Shown: positions 2,321 to 34,524 of the stretch, in pieces
Position numbering within the stretch: the stretch's first letter is position 1
Layout: each line of letters opens with the position of its first letter
From: Shigella phage phi25-307
DNA: 64,000 bases
Strand: one strand, 5' to 3'
Sequence record: MG589383
The notes under the pieces: generated by a model
The model's input: the letters and a program-made list of their open reading frames with translations, nothing else
Database searches by the model: none
What the model was told of the DNA's origin: nothing
Position numbers and translations under genes: made by a program

Positions 2321-3489
2321 CAGTATTCCAACGTCCAGGATATCCTAACTTAAGCGTTAAATTATATCAAGATTATTCGGCTTGGCAAGAAAATAGATAT
2401 GTTGAACTCGCAGCAACAATAACAACTTTAACCATGCGAGATTCGCTATATGGAAGAAATGAAGGGATTCTTCAATTTTATGACACTAAAAACATCCACA
2501 CTAAAATGGATGGTAGACAGATAGTCCAAATCTCTGTTTCAAATTCAAACACACCTCTCCAAGTTAGAACTCGAATTTATGGATGTAGACATTATTCTGT
2601 GTCTGTGGACTCAAAAGGTGACAATATTATTGCAATTGAGCTTGGAACAATACATTCTATAGAGAACCTTAAATTTGGGCGACCATTCTTCTCAGACGCA
2701 GGAGAATCTATACGTGAAATGTTAGGTGTCATATATAAAGACCGTACGTTAATTACTCCGCCAATAAACACTATTAATGCTTATGTTCCTGATATTCCTT
2801 GGACAAGCACATTTGATGATTATTTGGCATATGTCAGAGAATTAGGACTTGCTACAGCGAGTGATAAGTTCGTATTCGTATGGCAAGATATTTTAGGCGT
2901 AAACATGATTGACTATGATACTCTTATTGGTCAGGAAGGCATTAAGATGGTTGTAGGTGAGCCAAATACTGTAGGTCAGTATATTCAAGAGCTTGAGTAT
3001 CCATTAGTATGGGATTTCACCTGGATGACTAAAGCTAACCAATTTACAAGAGACCCTATTAAAAACGCCACGATATTCGCTCATTCATTTTTAGATACAT
3101 CTATTCCGGTTATTGTTACAGGCGATGGTGATAATGCTATTCTTGTGTCAAGATCAGGTGGATATTCCGAAATGACCTATCGTAATGGATTTGAAGAAGC
3201 AAGTCGTCTTCAGACAATGGCTCAATACGACGGATATGCTAAATGCACTACTACAGGTAATTTTAACATAACGCCTGCTACTAAAATTATATTTGTTGAC
3301 CAAAAGAACCAATTCAAATCCGAATTTTACGTAGATGAAGTTATTCATGAGTTATCAAATAACAACTCGCAAACTCATCTGTACATGTTTACCAACTCAA
3401 TGGTGTTAGAACCTGTTAACCCAGTTAAGGTTAAAAATGAACTTAAATCTGATTCTACCTCTAAAGAAAATAATTCTACCACAGTCTAA
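2317..3489 (+). CDS. 27: baseplate hub subunit gp27 (390 aa)
   Basis: Size and synteny (T4 gp27 391 aa); ATGA start/stop overlap with gene 51. Confidence 0.88.
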
Positions 3490-3970
3490 TAAAAAGGTAA
3501 TGATTCCCAAATTAGGGCTCAAACATTATAATCTTTTAAAGGACGTTAAAGGCCCTGATGAAAACATGAAAATCTTAGCAGATTCTATTTGTAAAAATAT
3601 GAGTCCAGCAGATTTTGATTTTGCATGTCTACACATATTGGAATTTAATAACAAACTTAAGTCTGAAGTTGAAAAAGATGGATTCACTTATAAACTAGAT
3701 GACGTCTATGTATGCCAACGAACAGAATTCCAATTTCAAGGTAATACTTTTTATTTTAGACCCCCGGGCAAATTTGAACAATTCGCTACAATCAGTGAAA
3801 TGCTATCAAATTGCTTAATAAAAGTTAATGACGAAGAGAAAGAAATTTCTTTCCTTGAGATGCCTGCTTTTGTAATCAAATGGGCAGAAGACCTTTCGAC
3901 AACTATTGCTATTCCAGGCCCTAATGGCCCTATTAAGGGTATAGCAGAAATTATTGGATTGCTTGAATGA
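3437..3970 (+). CDS. 28: baseplate hub distal subunit gp28 (177 aa)
   Basis: Size identical to T4 gp28, synteny; overlaps 3-prime end of gene 27. Confidence 0.82.
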
Positions 3971-5739
3971 AACCTGAAGAAATGAAATCCATGCGTAGAA
4001 ATAAGGTCATTGCCGATAATAAACCACAAAAAGTAGCTGCAACAGCAGCTACTGATTCATTAGAAGCATTGAATGATATTTCATCAAAACTAGACGATGT
4101 CCAAGCCGCGTCTGAACTCACATCACAAAGTGTAGAAGATAAAGGCAATGGAATTATTGAATCAATTGGAGACTTAAAGAATTCGACAGATAATACTGCT
4201 GAAGGCACAGAGCTTATCGCAGAAGTTATTGAAAAACAAACTGAAGTCACTAAAAGTATAAACGAAGTTTCTAGTGCAATAAGCTCCAAGTTAGACCGAT
4301 TAGCTACATTATTAGAGCAAAAATTACAAACATCTACCGCTATTCAAAATACAGGAGGCACCTCTCTTGAAGTAATTGAGAACGCAATACCTGTTAAAGT
4401 GGTTGAGAATGAAACTTATGATGAGCTGTTTAAAGCATTACCTACACCTGAAAAGATTGATAATAAGCCAGACGAAGATTTCTTCCCAGCCCCGGTTCAA
4501 GAAAGTGCTAATTCTACTTCTGATTCTAAAGGCGGGATTAGCTTTAAATTGAGCGATAAAATTGCAATGCTCACCAAAACAGTTCAAGCCGGGTTTAATA
4601 AATCAATATCAATTTCTGACAGAATTGCTGGAATGCTTTTCAAATACACTATAACGGCTGCTATTGAAGCAGCAAAAATGGCCGCACTTATTCTTGGTAT
4701 TGTTATCGGTATTGATTTATTGATAGTCCATTTCAAATATTGGACAGACAAGTTCACTTCTGCCTGGGATTTATTTGATGAAAACTTTACTAAATTCTCC
4801 GATGAAGCTAAAGAGTGGGGTAAATTCTTAAGTGATATATTCACTTCTATTGACTCTATAAAACAATTGTGGGAAGCTGGAGACTGGGGTGGTTTAACCG
4901 TTGCTATTGTCAAAGGTGTAGGAACAGCATTAATGAACTTAGGTGAACTAATTCAATTAGGAATGGCTAAACTCTCCGCGTCTATATTGCGTGCTATAGG
5001 TTTTGGTGATACCGCAGACGAAATAGAAGGACGTGCTTTGGAAGGATTCCAAGAAACTACTGGGAACACATTAAAGAAAGAAGACCAAGAGAAAGTCGCT
5101 AAATATCAAATGAAGCGTGACGATGGGGAATTAGGAACCGTTTCTAAAGGTCTTGATATGTTACAACGCGGCAAAACATTCGTTACTAACTGGGTTCGTG
5201 GTAATGACAATAAAGAAGAGTTTAGTACAAGCGATGAGCGTGCTGCGGAATCGGCAAAATTAAAAGAGTTACCTGAAGAGGAGCGTAAAGAGGCGTATAT
5301 AAAAGCTAATGAAACTCGTGCGGCACTAGTTAGATTTGAGGATTATATCGATAAAATCGATATGACTAATCCAGAAAATGCTAAAAACGTCGAGAAGTCT
5401 TATGCTGATTTAAGTAAACTTATTAAAGACCCTGAACTTAATAAAACTCCTGTTGTTAAAAAGGAATTGGATGCTAGATTTGAAAAGCTAAATAATAAAA
5501 TGGCTGAAGCCAAAAAAGCCCAGACAACAGTTAAGCCTGAATCTTCGACTAAATCTCCTGAAGCAAAACAAGTTCAGTCAATAGAGAAAGGACGTGCTTC
5601 TGAATCTAAACAACAGCAACCGGTAGCGGCGATTAGTAACACAAATAATGTCGTCAAAAAGAATACCGTAGTCCAGAATATGACCCCTGTAACAAGTACA
5701 ACGGCTCCTGGAATTTTCCATGCCACCGGTGTTAATTAA
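3967..5739 (+). CDS. 29: baseplate hub / tail length determinator gp29 (590 aa)
   Basis: Size identical to T4 gp29, synteny, low-complexity coiled regions typical of a tape-measure-like protein. Confidence 0.88.
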   Translation: MKPEEMKSMRRNKVIADNKPQKVAATAATDSLEALNDISSKLDDVQAASELTSQSVEDKGNGIIESIGDLKNSTDNTAEGTELIAEVIEKQTEVTKSINEVSSAISSKLDRLATLLEQKLQTSTAIQNTGGTSLEVIENAIPVKVVENETYDELFKALPTPEKIDNKPDEDFFPAPVQESANSTSDSKGGISFKLSDKIAMLTKTVQAGFNKSISISDRIAGMLFKYTITAAIEAAKMAALILGIVIGIDLLIVHFKYWTDKFTSAWDLFDENFTKFSDEAKEWGKFLSDIFTSIDSIKQLWEAGDWGGLTVAIVKGVGTALMNLGELIQLGMAKLSASILRAIGFGDTADEIEGRALEGFQETTGNTLKKEDQEKVAKYQMKRDDGELGTVSKGLDMLQRGKTFVTNWVRGNDNKEEFSTSDERAAESAKLKELPEEERKEAYIKANETRAALVRFEDYIDKIDMTNPENAKNVEKSYADLSKLIKDPELNKTPVVKKELDARFEKLNNKMAEAKKAQTTVKPESSTKSPEAKQVQSIEKGRASESKQQQPVAAISNTNNVVKKNTVVQNMTPVTSTTAPGIFHATGVN

Positions 5740-30608: not shown

Positions 30609-31508
30609 TTATAGACCAGCTAACAGGTCATCGAGGTCGCCATCGTCAGAAGACGAGGAACTCATGAAGTCATCTTCAGTTTTTGCAGAACTAAAGGCTT
30701 CCATGTCTTTATCAAAATCGTCGAGGTCAGAAGCAACTTTATCTGCAACAGAAGCTGCGGCAGCTGCTGCACCACCAAGAGCGGCAGTACCAAGAACTTG
30801 AGTAAATTTAGTATTCAATTCTTCAAACGATTTGAACTTATCTTTAGAAGTCATTTCAGAAAGGTCAACCATTTGTTCGAACAATTCTTTCTGGAAAGAT
30901 TCATCATCAATGTTTGGAATCGCAGATTGATTCAGGAATTTAGATTCGTCATAGTTACTGAAACCAGAAACCTGTTTAACTTTCAGCACAAAGTTAGCAC
31001 CTTCCCATGGGCAAGTTACATCAACAGGAGTTTCACCCATTTCAGTATCGACTGCAATCATTGCATTGATTTTGTCCCAAATCTTTTTACCAAAACGGTA
31101 TTTGAATACTTTACCTTCATTATCTGGAGCTTGTGGGTCTTTAACAACCAGGATATTAGCCCAATAAGAAGTTTTACGTTTCAGTTGAGAATATTCTGTT
31201 TTGTTTGTATTGTACAGATCATTTTTACTAATGTACTGACATACTGGACAAGAGTCATAATCGCCGTGTGTAGATGAACAGGTTTCAATATACCATTTGC
31301 CGTTTTTCTTGAACCCGTGGTTAACAAGAATTGCAAACGGAAGTGCGTCATCTGTTTTTGCCGGCAGGAAACGAATTACCGCTTGACCATTACCGGATGC
31401 ATCGAGTTTCAGCTTCCATTCACCTTTATCTTCTGAAGAGAAACCTTTGTTACCATTCAGTTTAGCCATCTGAGCTGCGAGGTCTGCGGTACTTTTACGT
31501 TTAAACAT
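30609..31508 (-). CDS. 32: single-stranded DNA-binding protein gp32 (299 aa)
   Basis: Collinear with T4 gp32 ([35 protein letters not shown], zinc site [16 protein letters not shown], acidic C-terminus). Confidence 0.95.
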
Positions 31509-31575: not shown

Positions 31576-31622
31576 TGGTATGATTTATTTATAAAGTAAT
31601 TTTAACACACAAGAAATAAAGC

Positions 31623-32276
31623 TTAATACTTACATGATTTGATTGTTTCTATGAACAATTTCTTAGCAGCATTTCCATCGATTTGAAGTATTTTTCGATA
31701 TGCCTTTAATTTGGTAGAATAATTTTGCCAGACTAAATTGTCAGTAAGTTCGTCGTGCTTATCTATAATATTCAAAAATGAGTCCAACAATAAGAAAGTC
31801 TCAAATGAGATTATATTGCTTTGTAGCAATTTGAATATGTAGCTCGACTGAACGTTGTTATTATAATCAAATATCTCTTGAAGCGCACTAACTTCAACTT
31901 TCTTACTGAAATAGTAGATGTTACGTACGTCTTCAGCAAACGTCTCCTTGGCTTGTTTGAGACGTCCAATATATTCCCTATAGAAAACTAATGCATCAGC
32001 GTCTGATATCTCACCAATCCATGCGTCTTGGTTAGCAACTAAGTTGCTTATGAATATCAAGGTGAGTTCCTTCAATTTATATTTCTCTGCTAGTTTTTCA
32101 AAGAAATATTTATCTCGGCGTTTTTGATACGCATTATCCGAAACACGCATGCACCAGTTATATTTGATTACGTCATACCGACCACCAAAGTGGTTTTTGC
32201 ACATCAAGTATAGTTTATATACTGATTTACCGTTAATATAACGTTCTCCGTCAGGAGGCATGCGTATTTTAATCAT
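31623..32276 (-). CDS. 59: helicase loader gp59 (217 aa)
   Basis: Size identical to T4 gp59; position between 32 and 33. Confidence 0.85.
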   Translation of the reverse strand: MIKIRMPPDGERYINGKSVYKLYLMCKNHFGGRYDVIKYNWCMRVSDNAYQKRRDKYFFEKLAEKYKLKELTLIFISNLVANQDAWIGEISDADALVFYREYIGRLKQAKETFAEDVRNIYYFSKKVEVSALQEIFDYNNNVQSSYIFKLLQSNIISFETFLLLDSFLNIIDKHDELTDNLVWQNYSTKLKAYRKILQIDGNAAKKLFIETIKSCKY

Positions 32277-32952
32277 AGTTCCATCCAGGCCATTTTGAAG
32301 ATTTAAGTCTATACGTAACTAGAGATGCAGAAATATTAAAAACATCCGAAACTTCTGTGCATGACGAGTATTTTATACCATCAATAATTATAGGTTTTTG
32401 TTTTTTAATAGTTCTTTCTTTAGAATGCGGCTTTGAATTTGCTATTCTAAGAGCTTCTTTGGTTGAATCAGGCATCGGCTTATTCGTTTTTCGCCCTTTT
32501 CGGACTTTACTCAAAGCTAATTTATGAGCTTCAGATAGTTTCTTACCCTTATTAGGGGATGGTATTTTTCTTTCTAATCTGGTTTTAGATACTTTAGCCT
32601 TAGTCTCTTCAGATCTAGGTTTACCTAATTTAGAAAGTGAAATAGCCCTTTTAGCTTCATCACTTTGTTTTTTACCAGGGCCACCTTTACCACCGGGAAC
32701 TAAGTTATAAGTATCAGTTCGCAAAACAAAATCTTCATTAACCAATTCTGCTTCTTTTTTATAGGCGTCCTTGTCATTATCATATTCATAAAGAATTTCG
32801 GTATAAAAATTTTTTAGTCCATATTTAGCTTTGGCCGCTAATATAGCGCGGCCTGATCCAATATACCAATCTTTCTCTTTATGTTTTTTGTGTACGCCTA
32901 TATAAATTTTACCATTTATTTTATTGGTAGTTTTATACACAACGTATTTCAT
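32269..32952 (-). CDS. free-standing GIY-YIG homing endonuclease, Seg-like (227 aa)
   Basis: N-terminal GIY-YIG module (KYVVYKTTNKINGKIYIGVH...R...E) followed by Lys/Ser-rich DNA-binding-type repeats; wedged between 59 and 33 with overlapping stops/starts. Confidence 0.75.
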   Translation of the reverse strand: MKYVVYKTTNKINGKIYIGVHKKHKEKDWYIGSGRAILAAKAKYGLKNFYTEILYEYDNDKDAYKKEAELVNEDFVLRTDTYNLVPGGKGGPGKKQSDEAKRAISLSKLGKPRSEETKAKVSKTRLERKIPSPNKGKKLSEAHKLALSKVRKGRKTNKPMPDSTKEALRIANSKPHSKERTIKKQKPIIIDGIKYSSCTEVSDVFNISASLVTYRLKSSKWPGWNYD

Positions 32953-33287
32953 AATAAGAAATCTAACGTATTAGTTTTTTCACCACGAGCAACTGATGGG
33001 CGAAGCATGTTTTCGTCAATTGCTTCGCTTGTAATTTTTTCAACAATTCCTGTAGGAATAAATTTAGCAAATTGTGTTTCTGGAATAGAATTTTCTTCCA
33101 AGAAAGCAGTTGTTGCTTCTAAATAAGACATACCAAATCGTTCAACCATGGATTCGATAATGAATCCGTTTTCTTGTCGGTCAAGTAATTTAGCGATATC
33201 ATCTTTATCGTGTTTTACTGCTAATTCTTGTTCAGATAAACCGGCCTCATCAACCGGTTTAATATCACTTAGTGAAAACTGTGTCAT
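32949..33287 (-). CDS. 33: late transcription accessory protein gp33 (112 aa)
   Basis: Collinear with T4 gp33 (MVERFGMSYLEATTAFLEENSIPETQFAKFIP, KTNTLDFLL). Confidence 0.93.
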   Translation of the reverse strand: MTQFSLSDIKPVDEAGLSEQELAVKHDKDDIAKLLDRQENGFIIESMVERFGMSYLEATTAFLEENSIPETQFAKFIPTGIVEKITSEAIDENMLRPSVARGEKTNTLDFLL

Positions 33288-33534
33288 AAAGCTCGACTAC
33301 CTCTTCGTTTTCAGCTTCAAATTGATCACGAGCGTCTTTATGATAAAGAGCTAACAAACGATTAAACATTTTTCCATCGACGCCAAGCTCTTCTTTAGCA
33401 CGAGTACGAATGTCTTTAATCAGTTCATTATAACCAGAAATTTTAAGTTTGTTATCGGAAGCTTCTTTGACTAGTTTAGCCAGTTCTTCACCATGCACAT
33501 CTTGATTAAATTCAACTGCTTCTTTCTTAGCCAT
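33265..33534 (-). CDS. dsbA: dsDNA-binding protein DsbA (89 aa; start at internal ATG 33534)
   Basis: MAKKE..VEF...HGE.LAK..KEASD.KLKISGYNELIKDIR as T4 DsbA; SD GAGGT upstream of ATG 33534. Confidence 0.88.
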   Translation of the reverse strand: MAKKEAVEFNQDVHGEELAKLVKEASDNKLKISGYNELIKDIRTRAKEELGVDGKMFNRLLALYHKDARDQFEAENEEVVELYDTVFTK

Positions 33535-33541
33535 GTTTACC

Positions 33542-34459
33542 TCAGAATTCATTAATTACACTTGTTAATTTAGAAAGACCAGATTTTACAAAGTATGAAT
33601 AAATCTTGCCTTTAGGTTGTGGTTTATATGAGTTATAATACTCTATAATGGTTGAAGCAATATTATCAGGGATATAATCAAAATCAATGAGAACCAAATT
33701 TTCTTGATACCGTTTATATTCTTCTGCACTTAATAATACTTCGGCTTGAGAACGGTCATTGGCAATTGCTTCAATAATCGTTGTTTTCATGCTCGGAGTT
33801 CGTTCACCATCAACTCGAGTAAACCAGAAGTCACCACGAACTCGAACAGATGCAACGCCATCTTTACGGTCACCTTTAAGAATTTTAGTCATGCAATCAA
33901 TTTCAGCAGAACCGTTCTTAATTTTAACCCATTTTTTCTGTGGTGGCGACCACTGTTTAACGTTAGGATATTTGTGTAATTGTGTAAAGTCACCATCTGA
34001 TGCAACAATACATACCTTATGACCAGCTAATGACAAATATTTAGTTAATACACCGATATGGTCATCCGCTTCATACTTGTCAATATCCATTACAACGTAT
34101 GGCATGTATTTCTTAATCTCATCAACAACTTGATGGAGTGCAGTAAAATATCCTTCCCAATCCCACTTTGAAGCTTCACGATCGGTTTTACGATTTTTCT
34201 TGTAATAGTAAGCAAAGTCACGACGCCAATAACCTGAAGTAGCATTATCCATACACAATACAAATTTTGTATAGCCTTGCTTACGGAACATCACCACGTT
34301 TTTACGAATTGAATTCAAGATTACATGGCGAACCATCGGAACAGTAATTTTATCGCCGTCTTCAAAGTTGTTTAATGCGGCTGCCAATGCAATGTTACTA
34401 AAGTCGGCAAGTGCAATACCTTCTTTGTAATCTTCATCCAACATCATTTCTAAATCCAT
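33542..34459 (-). CDS. rnh: RNase H / 5-prime flap exonuclease (305 aa)
   Basis: Size identical to T4 RNase H; position between dsbA and gene 34. Confidence 0.85.
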   Translation of the reverse strand: MDLEMMLDEDYKEGIALADFSNIALAAALNNFEDGDKITVPMVRHVILNSIRKNVVMFRKQGYTKFVLCMDNATSGYWRRDFAYYYKKNRKTDREASKWDWEGYFTALHQVVDEIKKYMPYVVMDIDKYEADDHIGVLTKYLSLAGHKVCIVASDGDFTQLHKYPNVKQWSPPQKKWVKIKNGSAEIDCMTKILKGDRKDGVASVRVRGDFWFTRVDGERTPSMKTTIIEAIANDRSQAEVLLSAEEYKRYQENLVLIDFDYIPDNIASTIIEYYNSYKPQPKGKIYSYFVKSGLSKLTSVINEF

Positions 34460-34524
34460 ATGAACCTCTTGTTCAGTTAGTCAACTTGACTATAGTAACA
34501 TACTCATTTGAAAGCGTAAACTGG

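Follow-up and report, generated by a model that had tools for sequence, protein, structure and literature searches.

A probable homing endonuclease gene between genes 33 and 59 of Shigella phage phi25-307 and its linkage to the 5' end of gene 59

Shigella phage phi25-307 carries a free-standing GIY-YIG homing endonuclease gene between gene 33, which encodes the late-transcription co-activator gp33, and gene 59, which encodes the helicase loader gp59. We analysed a 64,000-nucleotide (nt) stretch of this phage (MG589383), referred to here as the window, in which the gene occupies 32269-32952 on the minus strand. We consider it likely, with a probability of about 0.75, that its product is an active or very recently active enzyme directed at the 5' end of gene 59 where a genome lacks the endonuclease gene, and that the phages that carry the gene hold a resistant allele of that target. 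The gene is patchily distributed among close relatives, bears the marks of purifying selection, sits at one and the same site in four genera, and is linked exclusively to a short stretch at the 5' end of gene 59; it has also been gained recently.

Elements of this kind are already known. What is new is a site-specific clade, so far uncharacterised, that occupies the gp33|gp59 junction and can be added to the T4 Seg paradigm, together with evidence from natural variation for recent mobility, a candidate target and immunity stretch of 45 bp, and amino-acid changes that accompany the selfish gene in the N-terminus of gp59. A literature search, which had subscription journals outside its reach and does not prove absence, turned up no published description of an endonuclease located at the 33/59 junction. 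Public genomes from four genera amount to a natural experiment, with carriers, sensitive and resistant empty sites, and near-isogenic pairs. They make both the target region, 45 bp of gene 59, and the results of crosses directly predictable and cheap to test.

Distribution of the insert and its linkage to gene 59

The window belongs to Mosigvirus (the RB69 group), and its closest record is PHB12 (99.3% identity over 2.2 kb). This 2.2-kb region is matched by 185 phage records, 151 of them at 95% identity or more. Among these 151 Mosigvirus records the insert is present in 27 and missing in about 124, RB69 included; in the latter a clean ATGA junction joins gp33 to gp59. Empty-site relatives are therefore common, and the insertion is not one that all close relatives share, a possibility raised with the original prediction for this gene. 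That prediction also spoke of a lineage-specific mobile insertion. Mobility is borne out by presence that varies among very close relatives and by the transfer footprints described below, whereas lineage specificity has to be given up, the same junction being occupied in four genera.

The alignment with 13 empty-site Mosigvirus genomes contains a single gap at 32273-32948 (given without strand; 677 alignment columns, as the AV116 copy has one extra base). The missing segment is 676 bp long, with ends that are ambiguous by the 4-nt ATGA repeat. The insert has ATGA at both of its borders, and gp33 and gp59 are intact in the empty-site phages. Presence is polymorphic inside at least four species of the International Committee on Taxonomy of Viruses (ICTV) that also have empty-site members, as in mar005p1 (WFbE185 a carrier; NBG1, moha and JK36 non-carriers), JS09 (SSE1 a carrier; ZQ3 and ST0 non-carriers) and shsm521 (SHSML-52-1 a carrier, its membership assumed from the species name; FP43 a non-carrier). 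When flanking DNA is compared, the window comes closest to the non-carrier ZQ3, and for several further carriers the closest neighbour is likewise a non-carrier; therefore the carriers are not a clade.

When the window copy is compared with five further copies from Mosigvirus, at dS of 0.11-0.20, the ratio of non-synonymous to synonymous substitution rates (dN/dS) is 0.09-0.13; it is 0.26 for the close pair L028/L032, on 10 differences only. These values indicate that the endonuclease copies are under purifying selection. Of 11 copies that were inspected, 10 are intact; in the remaining 16 carrier records the match extends over all 227 codons, at 96.5% or more.

Association with the insert was scored (Fisher, p<0.05) in a 5.2-kb alignment of 11 carriers (the window and 10 others) and 13 randomly chosen non-carriers. 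Only 8 of the 692 variable columns associate with the insert (p from 4e-7 to 3e-3), and all of them lie in 32185-32229 on the minus strand, that is, nt 48-92 of gene 59. The carrier allele at 32217 is found in 11/11 carriers and 0/13 non-carriers (p 4e-7), those at 32185, 32186, 32193 and 32195 in 11/11 carriers and 1/13 non-carriers, and those at 32190, 32223 and 32229 are private to subsets of the carriers. On the gene strand, non-carriers read GTATACAAACTATACTTGATGTGCAAACAACATTTTAATGG, identical in 12 of 12 sensitive genomes, and carriers read GTATATAAACTATACTTGATGTGCAAAAACCAYTTTGGTGG, which gives the gp59 changes Q28N and N31G beside synonymous ones. The window phage itself has AAAAACCACTTTGGTGG in place of AAACAACATTTTAATGG, plus TAT for TAC at codon 20. 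We propose that this cluster is a resistant version of the endonuclease target; the sensitive-type 26-mer is found nowhere in the window, even with 3 mismatches allowed.

The position of the linked sites is as telling as their number. Nt 27 and 45 of gene 59 are polymorphic and nearer to the insert, yet they are common to both classes and unlinked; therefore the linkage is not simple hitchhiking. It is strongest 60-92 bp from the insert with none nearer, which would fit selection against the combination of endonuclease and cleavable target. The linkage is also one-way, in that 11/11 carriers have the altered stretch, yet empty-site phages with the altered stretch exist: F2 has the full carrier haplotype, and LF82-1 and 12 sister records have the block at codons 28-31. 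Such phages may represent a stage expected in a homing cycle, resistant and free of the endonuclease. The linked sites fall into two sub-clusters, nt 48-60 and nt 82-92, with a spacing like that of the separate cleavage and binding sites of I-TevI, which is only a resemblance; no CNNNG cleavage motif of the I-TevI type was seen by eye in the sensitive allele.

Footprints of transfer are found in other lineages as well. Karamvirus KMB20, the sole Karamvirus record with the gene in the phage collection, is 100% identical to IMG/VR contig L007 over about 570 bp upstream and about 800 bp downstream, with the exception of a 592-bp endonuclease insertion at ATGA and a tract of 34 substitutions in gp59 nt 10-98. 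Winklervirus CHI14 differs from Gravdalen and X20 by the insertion and 22 substitutions in gp59 nt 28-78, and by almost nothing else within 1 kb on each side. The metagenomic, Dhakavirus-like carrier contig L054 and the non-carrier L010 differ by about 22 substitutions in gp59 nt 6-84, with none in nt 85-111 and 99.2% identity beyond nt 150. Thus, in all four lineages the unit that differs is the endonuclease gene with the first 80-100 bp or so of gene 59, never gene 33. Gene 33 has no insert-linked changes either in the 5.2-kb Mosigvirus alignment or in the other lineages, so that the affected DNA, predicted to be the 59-33 region, must be narrowed to the first ~100 bp of gene 59. The near-isogenic natural pairs look like products of co-conversion in mixed infection.

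The foreign gp59 tract of KMB20 has no donor in the phage collection. A related tract occurs on metagenomic contig L057, where the first 32 aa of gp59 (MIKLQMPPNNNRYIDGKSVYKLYLMIKQHMNG) are the same as those of KMB20, at about 80% nt identity by eye.

These tracts could also be read in another way. The recognition site may span the gp33|gp59 junction, as it does for enzymes encoded in introns, in which case the insert would confer immunity by splitting the site, and the altered gp59 stretch would be foreign DNA co-converted when the element first arrived. The tracts in Karamvirus, Winklervirus and the L054/L010 pair start 6-28 nt from the junction and run continuously to nt 78-98, which is the pattern of co-conversion from a divergent donor; the ATGATTAAR (MIK) start of the endonuclease copies the first codons of gp59, so there is microhomology at the junction. 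However, the Mosigvirus data show the opposite of a decay with distance, with nt 27 and 45 unlinked and nt 60-92 completely or almost completely linked, a pattern that implies selection for keeping the insert and the gp59 stretch together. The known free-standing endonucleases of T4 also cut away from their insertion sites (PMC2988022). We consider a junction-spanning site unlikely, and prefer a target within the 5' end of gene 59.

Endonuclease clade, domain architecture and catalytic residues

The 27 Mosigvirus copies share at least 96.5% amino-acid (aa) identity, and the next-best protein matches all adjoin gene 33. They come from the Dhakavirus phages AnYang, IME540 and LQ5 (56.6% aa), the Winklervirus phages CHI14, CBH8 and LC53 together with Kosakonia phage Kc304 (50-52%), and Karamvirus KMB20 (47%). 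Outside this 33|59 clade all matches are at or below 39%, including Tequatrovirus genes annotated segD. In LQ5, AnYang, CHI14 and KMB20 the gene lies between gp33 and gp59 with an ATGA overlap at its start. A large protein database likewise contains a discrete clade (P0001-P0016, at 46-61%) followed by a gap; its metagenomic members P0003, P0004, P0006 and P0008 are all four at gp33|gp59, as are all clade members with context examined. Most members begin with MIK(Y/H), encoded by ATGATTAAR, which copies codons 1-3 of gp59. The clade is specialised for the gp33|gp59 junction of Tevenvirinae phages.

The metagenomic member P0003 (contigs L057 and L058) is a chimera: over the first ~150 residues it is almost the same as the Karamvirus type (P0011 and P0012), but in its long linker and its DNA-binding domain at the C-terminus it is similar to the Dhakavirus type (P0005). 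This suggests domain shuffling within the endonuclease clade.

Annotation of these genes is uneven. In dozens of genomes GenBank labels them 'homing endonuclease', 'SegH-like', 'segD' or 'group I intron endonuclease', and the Winklervirus homologue is among those annotated 'segD'. The window protein is 100% identical at the aa level to the 'Seg-like homing endonuclease' of PHB12 and to the 'intron endonuclease, group I' of 348Ecol098PP. The endonuclease of KMB20 (OL828291.1; L048 2498-3097) is intact, with 199 aa from the ATGA overlap with gp33, whereas the record annotates only a 132-aa C-terminal 'hypothetical protein' from an internal ATG.

The window protein is encoded by an intact open reading frame (ORF) with an ATG start and 227 aa plus a stop. 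It is a real gene rather than a chance ORF, and the protein matches I-TevI_DNA-bd, TIGR01453 and PHROG 314. Its architecture is of the I-TevI/Seg type, with an N-terminal GIY-YIG nuclease domain (aa 1-90; 32683-32952), a linker with NUMOD3-type helical repeats (aa 91-182; 32407-32682) and a predicted C-terminal helix-turn-helix DNA-binding domain (aa 183-227; 32272-32406), all on the minus strand. The I-TevI_DNA-bd match (PF20987) has an E-value of 6e-11 and 42.6 bits against a cut-off of 27, and this domain is present in 15/15 clade members. The Pfam NUMOD3 match, at 20.8 bits, just exceeds its cut-off (20.4), and PHROG 314 'homing endonuclease' matches at E 1e-55. With 75 bits over residues 4-224, above the cut-off of 56.05, the protein belongs to the NCBIfam family TIGR01453 'group I intron endonuclease', and phmmer matches the C-terminal domain to PDB 1I3J (E 5e-4).

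An AlphaFold model built from 78 homologues has a mean predicted local distance difference test score (pLDDT) of 89. In a Foldseek comparison of this model with PDB, I-TevI's catalytic domain (1MK0 and 1LN0) is found with a probability of 1.00 and a target-normalised template modelling (TM) score of 0.65 over 95 aligned columns, and I-TevI's DNA-binding domain (1I3J) is also found with a probability of 1.00. The modelled N-terminal domain has the order strand, strand, helix, strand, helix, and the linker helices span residues 98-107, 115-127, 141-153 and 162-173. Winklervirus and Karamvirus homologues are without ~34 of the linker residues.

The motif of the nuclease domain reads VVY6-x10-Y17-I-G19, on modelled strands 2-10 and 16-23. 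Y6, Y17, G19, E67 and N83 (as Y82-N83) are invariant across the 78 family sequences. By the family profile, Y6, Y17 and G19 align with the same residues of I-TevI, and E67 and N83 are the counterparts of its E75 and N90. In I-TevI, E75 is located on a helix, and E67 matches it in position on the modelled helix 60-70. A loss of catalytic residues, the outcome that would have undermined the original prediction, is thus largely absent, with four of the five canonical I-TevI positions conserved and the counterpart of Arg27 not assignable.

Proposed homing cycle, T4 relatives and alternative explanations

We propose the following cycle. The cassette, which appears to be promoter-less, would presumably be transcribed together with rnh, dsbA, 33 and 59 and presumably be translated by coupling to the gp33 stop through ATGA, with its own 3' end rebuilding the ATGA start context of gp59. 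In a mixed infection, the helix-turn-helix and NUMOD3 region would bind gene 59 of the empty allele at about nt 50-100 (about 32177-32227 of the window), and the GIY-YIG domain would then cut there. Recombinational repair of the T4 type, with the carrier genome as the source, would bring in the endonuclease gene along with the first 80-100 bp or so of the carrier gene 59. Carriers would be spared self-cleavage by their altered gp59 stretch, and crosses would be expected to show marker exclusion confined to the 5' end of gp59. That the gene is expressed and its product cleaves, where precisely the cut falls, and that the element is preferentially inherited are steps that we infer.

Comparison with T4 places this element among known systems. 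The seg genes of T4 lie at uvsX/beta-gt, tRNA, 5.1/5.3, 23/24, inh/uvsW, soc/56 and 32/59 (PMC2988022), with segG between 59 and 32 (PMC535899; PMC2988022). The original prediction stated that segG is beside gene 32 and that T4 has no seg gene between 33 and 59, in agreement with both papers. The window gene is not orthologous to a named T4-group Seg protein (SegA-G, or the 'SegH' annotated in Shf125875), given at most 39% aa identity and a different site.

SegG resembles the window gene in being a free-standing GIY-YIG gene of the rnh-dsbA-33-59-32 cluster that has no promoter and is read from upstream transcripts (PMC2988022; PMC535899). It cuts a neighbouring essential gene at a distance, with co-conversion of flanking markers (PMC2988022; PMC535899), and we propose the same for the window gene. 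SegG differs in its place, across gene 59 at 59/32, and in its target, which is gene 32, and its sequence (IVY...YYIGSK type, as in L005 and LQ5/AnYang) is unrelated to the window protein beyond the motif. The reported SegG cut site is 'distant', whereas the tracts described here end about 80-100 bp from the insert. The window is without segG and has a 59-32 spacer of 114 bp.

SegF (soc/56) is the classic example of a free-standing Seg enzyme behind localised exclusion of markers in the gene beside it (cited in PMC2330249; PMC2988022); it differs from the window gene in locus and target. SegD is the likeness suggested by annotation, as Tequatrovirus endonuclease genes, some of them annotated segD, are the best matches in that genus at 34-39% aa, with the annotated SegD homologues of RB18 and T6 at ~34%. 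However, SegD belongs to the 23/24 site, and identity to it does not exceed 39%, compared with 47-57% within the 33|59 clade. SegD is also antisense to its neighbours (PMC2988022), whereas the window gene is co-oriented with its neighbours and presumably translationally coupled.

In build, the best structural match for both domains is I-TevI, which likewise begins with a GIY-YIG domain, continues with a linker of the NUMOD3 type and has its helix-turn-helix at the C-terminus. I-TevI is intron-encoded (T4 td), whereas the window gene lies outside introns. The two catalytic domains are ~23% identical, and the Arg27 helix of I-TevI is not alignable. The zinc finger of I-TevI is missing because the window protein has a single Cys. 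By analogy, the element would work like SegG and SegF and be built like I-TevI minus the zinc finger.

Several points weigh against an active homing endonuclease that targets gene 59. At the protein level, the Pfam SegE_GIY-YIG match of 22 bits is slightly below its cut-off of 25. The part of I-TevI that contains Arg27 is inserted with respect to the family profile, so that the counterpart of this residue is not assignable, and no Arg is invariant among the 78 family sequences (H21, K15 and K43 are at least 90% conserved). The AV116 copy (L034) is frameshifted by a single extra T at nt 307 of the endonuclease, which truncates the annotated ORF and reflects either true loss of the gene's function or an error in sequencing. 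A target sequence common to all genera is ruled out, as the changed positions differ between clades, and at codon 28 the Karamvirus carrier allele resembles the empty (sensitive) allele of Mosigvirus. The searchable literature holds no cleavage or co-infection data for the window protein or its clade, and SegD is reported not to home its own gene (cited in PMC10448857). Because the changed bases differ between lineages and because of the resemblance at codon 28, the diverged enzymes probably have diverged specificities.

A decaying or domesticated relic that is no longer mobile, with a patchy distribution produced by old vertical inheritance, repeated deletion and ordinary recombination, would account for the frameshift in AV116, for the unassignable Arg27 counterpart, and for the empty sites with a carrier-type gp59 allele (F2 and the LF82 series), which look like losses. 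We regard this as very improbable in view of a dN/dS of ~0.1 over dS up to 0.2, of 10/11 inspected copies that are intact with 16 further records full-length at 96.5% or more, and of the pairs KMB20/L007 and CHI14/Gravdalen, whose identity beyond the element itself points to a very recent gain; apart from KMB20, no Karamvirus record in the phage collection has the gene. It is more doubtful still that the main role is other than the gene's own homing, such as a weapon of relaxed specificity against competing phages or host DNA, or a SegB-like promotion of recombination: SegB has relaxed cleavage specificity (PMC2330249) and is linked to anti-defence gene amplification (PMC13096335), and SegD reportedly does not home (cited in PMC10448857), but confinement of the clade to one junction in at least four genera and exclusive linkage to one 45-bp stretch of the adjacent gene are both signatures of site-specific homing.

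If homing at gene 59 is correct, a selfish gene would impose amino-acid changes on the essential replication protein gp59. The 5' end of gp59 would be unreliable for phylogeny, and therapeutic or collection Mosigviruses would convert each other at this end in mixed culture. We also raise, tentatively and at a little short of even odds, the broader possibility that the mobile unit is a two-part cassette, consisting of the endonuclease gene and the first ~30 codons of gene 59, that has crossed at least four genera and repeatedly overwrites the gp59 N-terminus (as in Q28N and N31G), in a clade that reshuffles its catalytic and DNA-binding halves. If so, a selfish element would be one of the main forces in the protein-level evolution of the N-terminal part of a core protein of replication, and the paired sensitive and resistant alleles in public genomes would form a specificity map for related, reprogrammable I-TevI-like enzymes. 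I-TevI-like modular nucleases are used in genome-editing fusions, for which related enzymes with inferable targets may have some applied value.

Gene context, expression signals and neighbouring observations

Gene 33 (32949-33287; Pfam Trans_coact, E 6e-26) is the upstream neighbour and gene 59 (31623-32276; Pfam T4_Gp59_N, E 2e-49, and T4_Gp59_C, E 6e-44), the proposed target, is the downstream neighbour, both on the minus strand. Gene 32 (30609-31508) follows gene 59, and dsbA and rnh are further upstream of gene 33. The endonuclease gene sits between phage genes, outside any intron or intein, and tblastn found no paralogue of it elsewhere in the window. As predicted, a free-standing GIY-YIG gene lies between genes 59 and 33 with codon overlaps on both sides. 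At 32949-32952 (minus strand) the ATGA combines the gp33 stop with the endonuclease start, the same ATGA that joins gp33 to gp59 in empty-site phages. At 32269-32276 (minus strand) the last codons and the stop of the endonuclease are at the same time the first 8 nt (codons 1-3) of gp59, ATGATTAA. The endonuclease stop codon is formed from gp59 codons 2-3, and the ATGA coupling for gp59 is thereby recreated. Dhakavirus and Karamvirus copies have the same 3' overlap arrangement with gp59, and in the Winklervirus copy this overlap is 26 nt long. GC content is 33% in the insert and 34% in gp59 and gp33, so that base composition is uninformative and does not serve as a sign of foreign origin.

We found no T4 late promoter (TATAAATA) on the minus strand of 31594-34524, which rules out a late promoter of the endonuclease's own in this interval; the nearest minus-strand TATAAATA is at 31586-31593, in the 59-32 spacer upstream of gene 32. 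A scan for sigma-70-type promoters, with MotA-type middle promoters not searched, gave only weak 9/12 matches within the gene. An RNA hairpin hides the start site of I-TevI and of segB. Such a hairpin is ruled out here, as the predicted fold of 32900-33010 (minus strand) is unremarkable (z -0.75).

At 32277-32300 (minus strand), conserved C-terminal codons of the endonuclease (W-P-G-W-N/K-Y, ...TGGCCTGGATGGAAC...) position a purine-rich GGATGGAA some 10 nt ahead of the ATG of gp59. Its counterpart in empty-site phages is TTAGATTTCTTATT, without a Shine-Dalgarno-like sequence. Thus, the insertion may change translation initiation of gp59.

The other side of gene 59 is also occupied in some relatives. 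LQ5 (L025 4318-4947) and AnYang (L049 3845-4462) have a second, SegG-like GIY-YIG ORF between 59 and 32, with the motif IVYW...YYIGSK in LQ5 and ...FSYIGSK in AnYang. In these two phages gene 59 is thus flanked by two endonuclease genes, the 59/32 site being the one used in the T4-like L005. Metagenomic contig L053 has a 221-aa ORF between 59 and 32 (3346-4011).

RB69 alone has an extra ~263 bp with RB69ORF245c (L043 342-569), at a place corresponding to about 30509 of the window (gene 32/frd.2); the window and the other 23 genomes are without it. Here, too, presence is polymorphic, a few hundred bp away from gene 32. The RB69 record AY303349 (L043) annotates gp59 as 175 aa (1726-2253), and that of phage SF (L036) annotates a later start. 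In both phages the full 217-aa gp59 ORF with the ATGA overlap is present, and the short versions are annotation artefacts.

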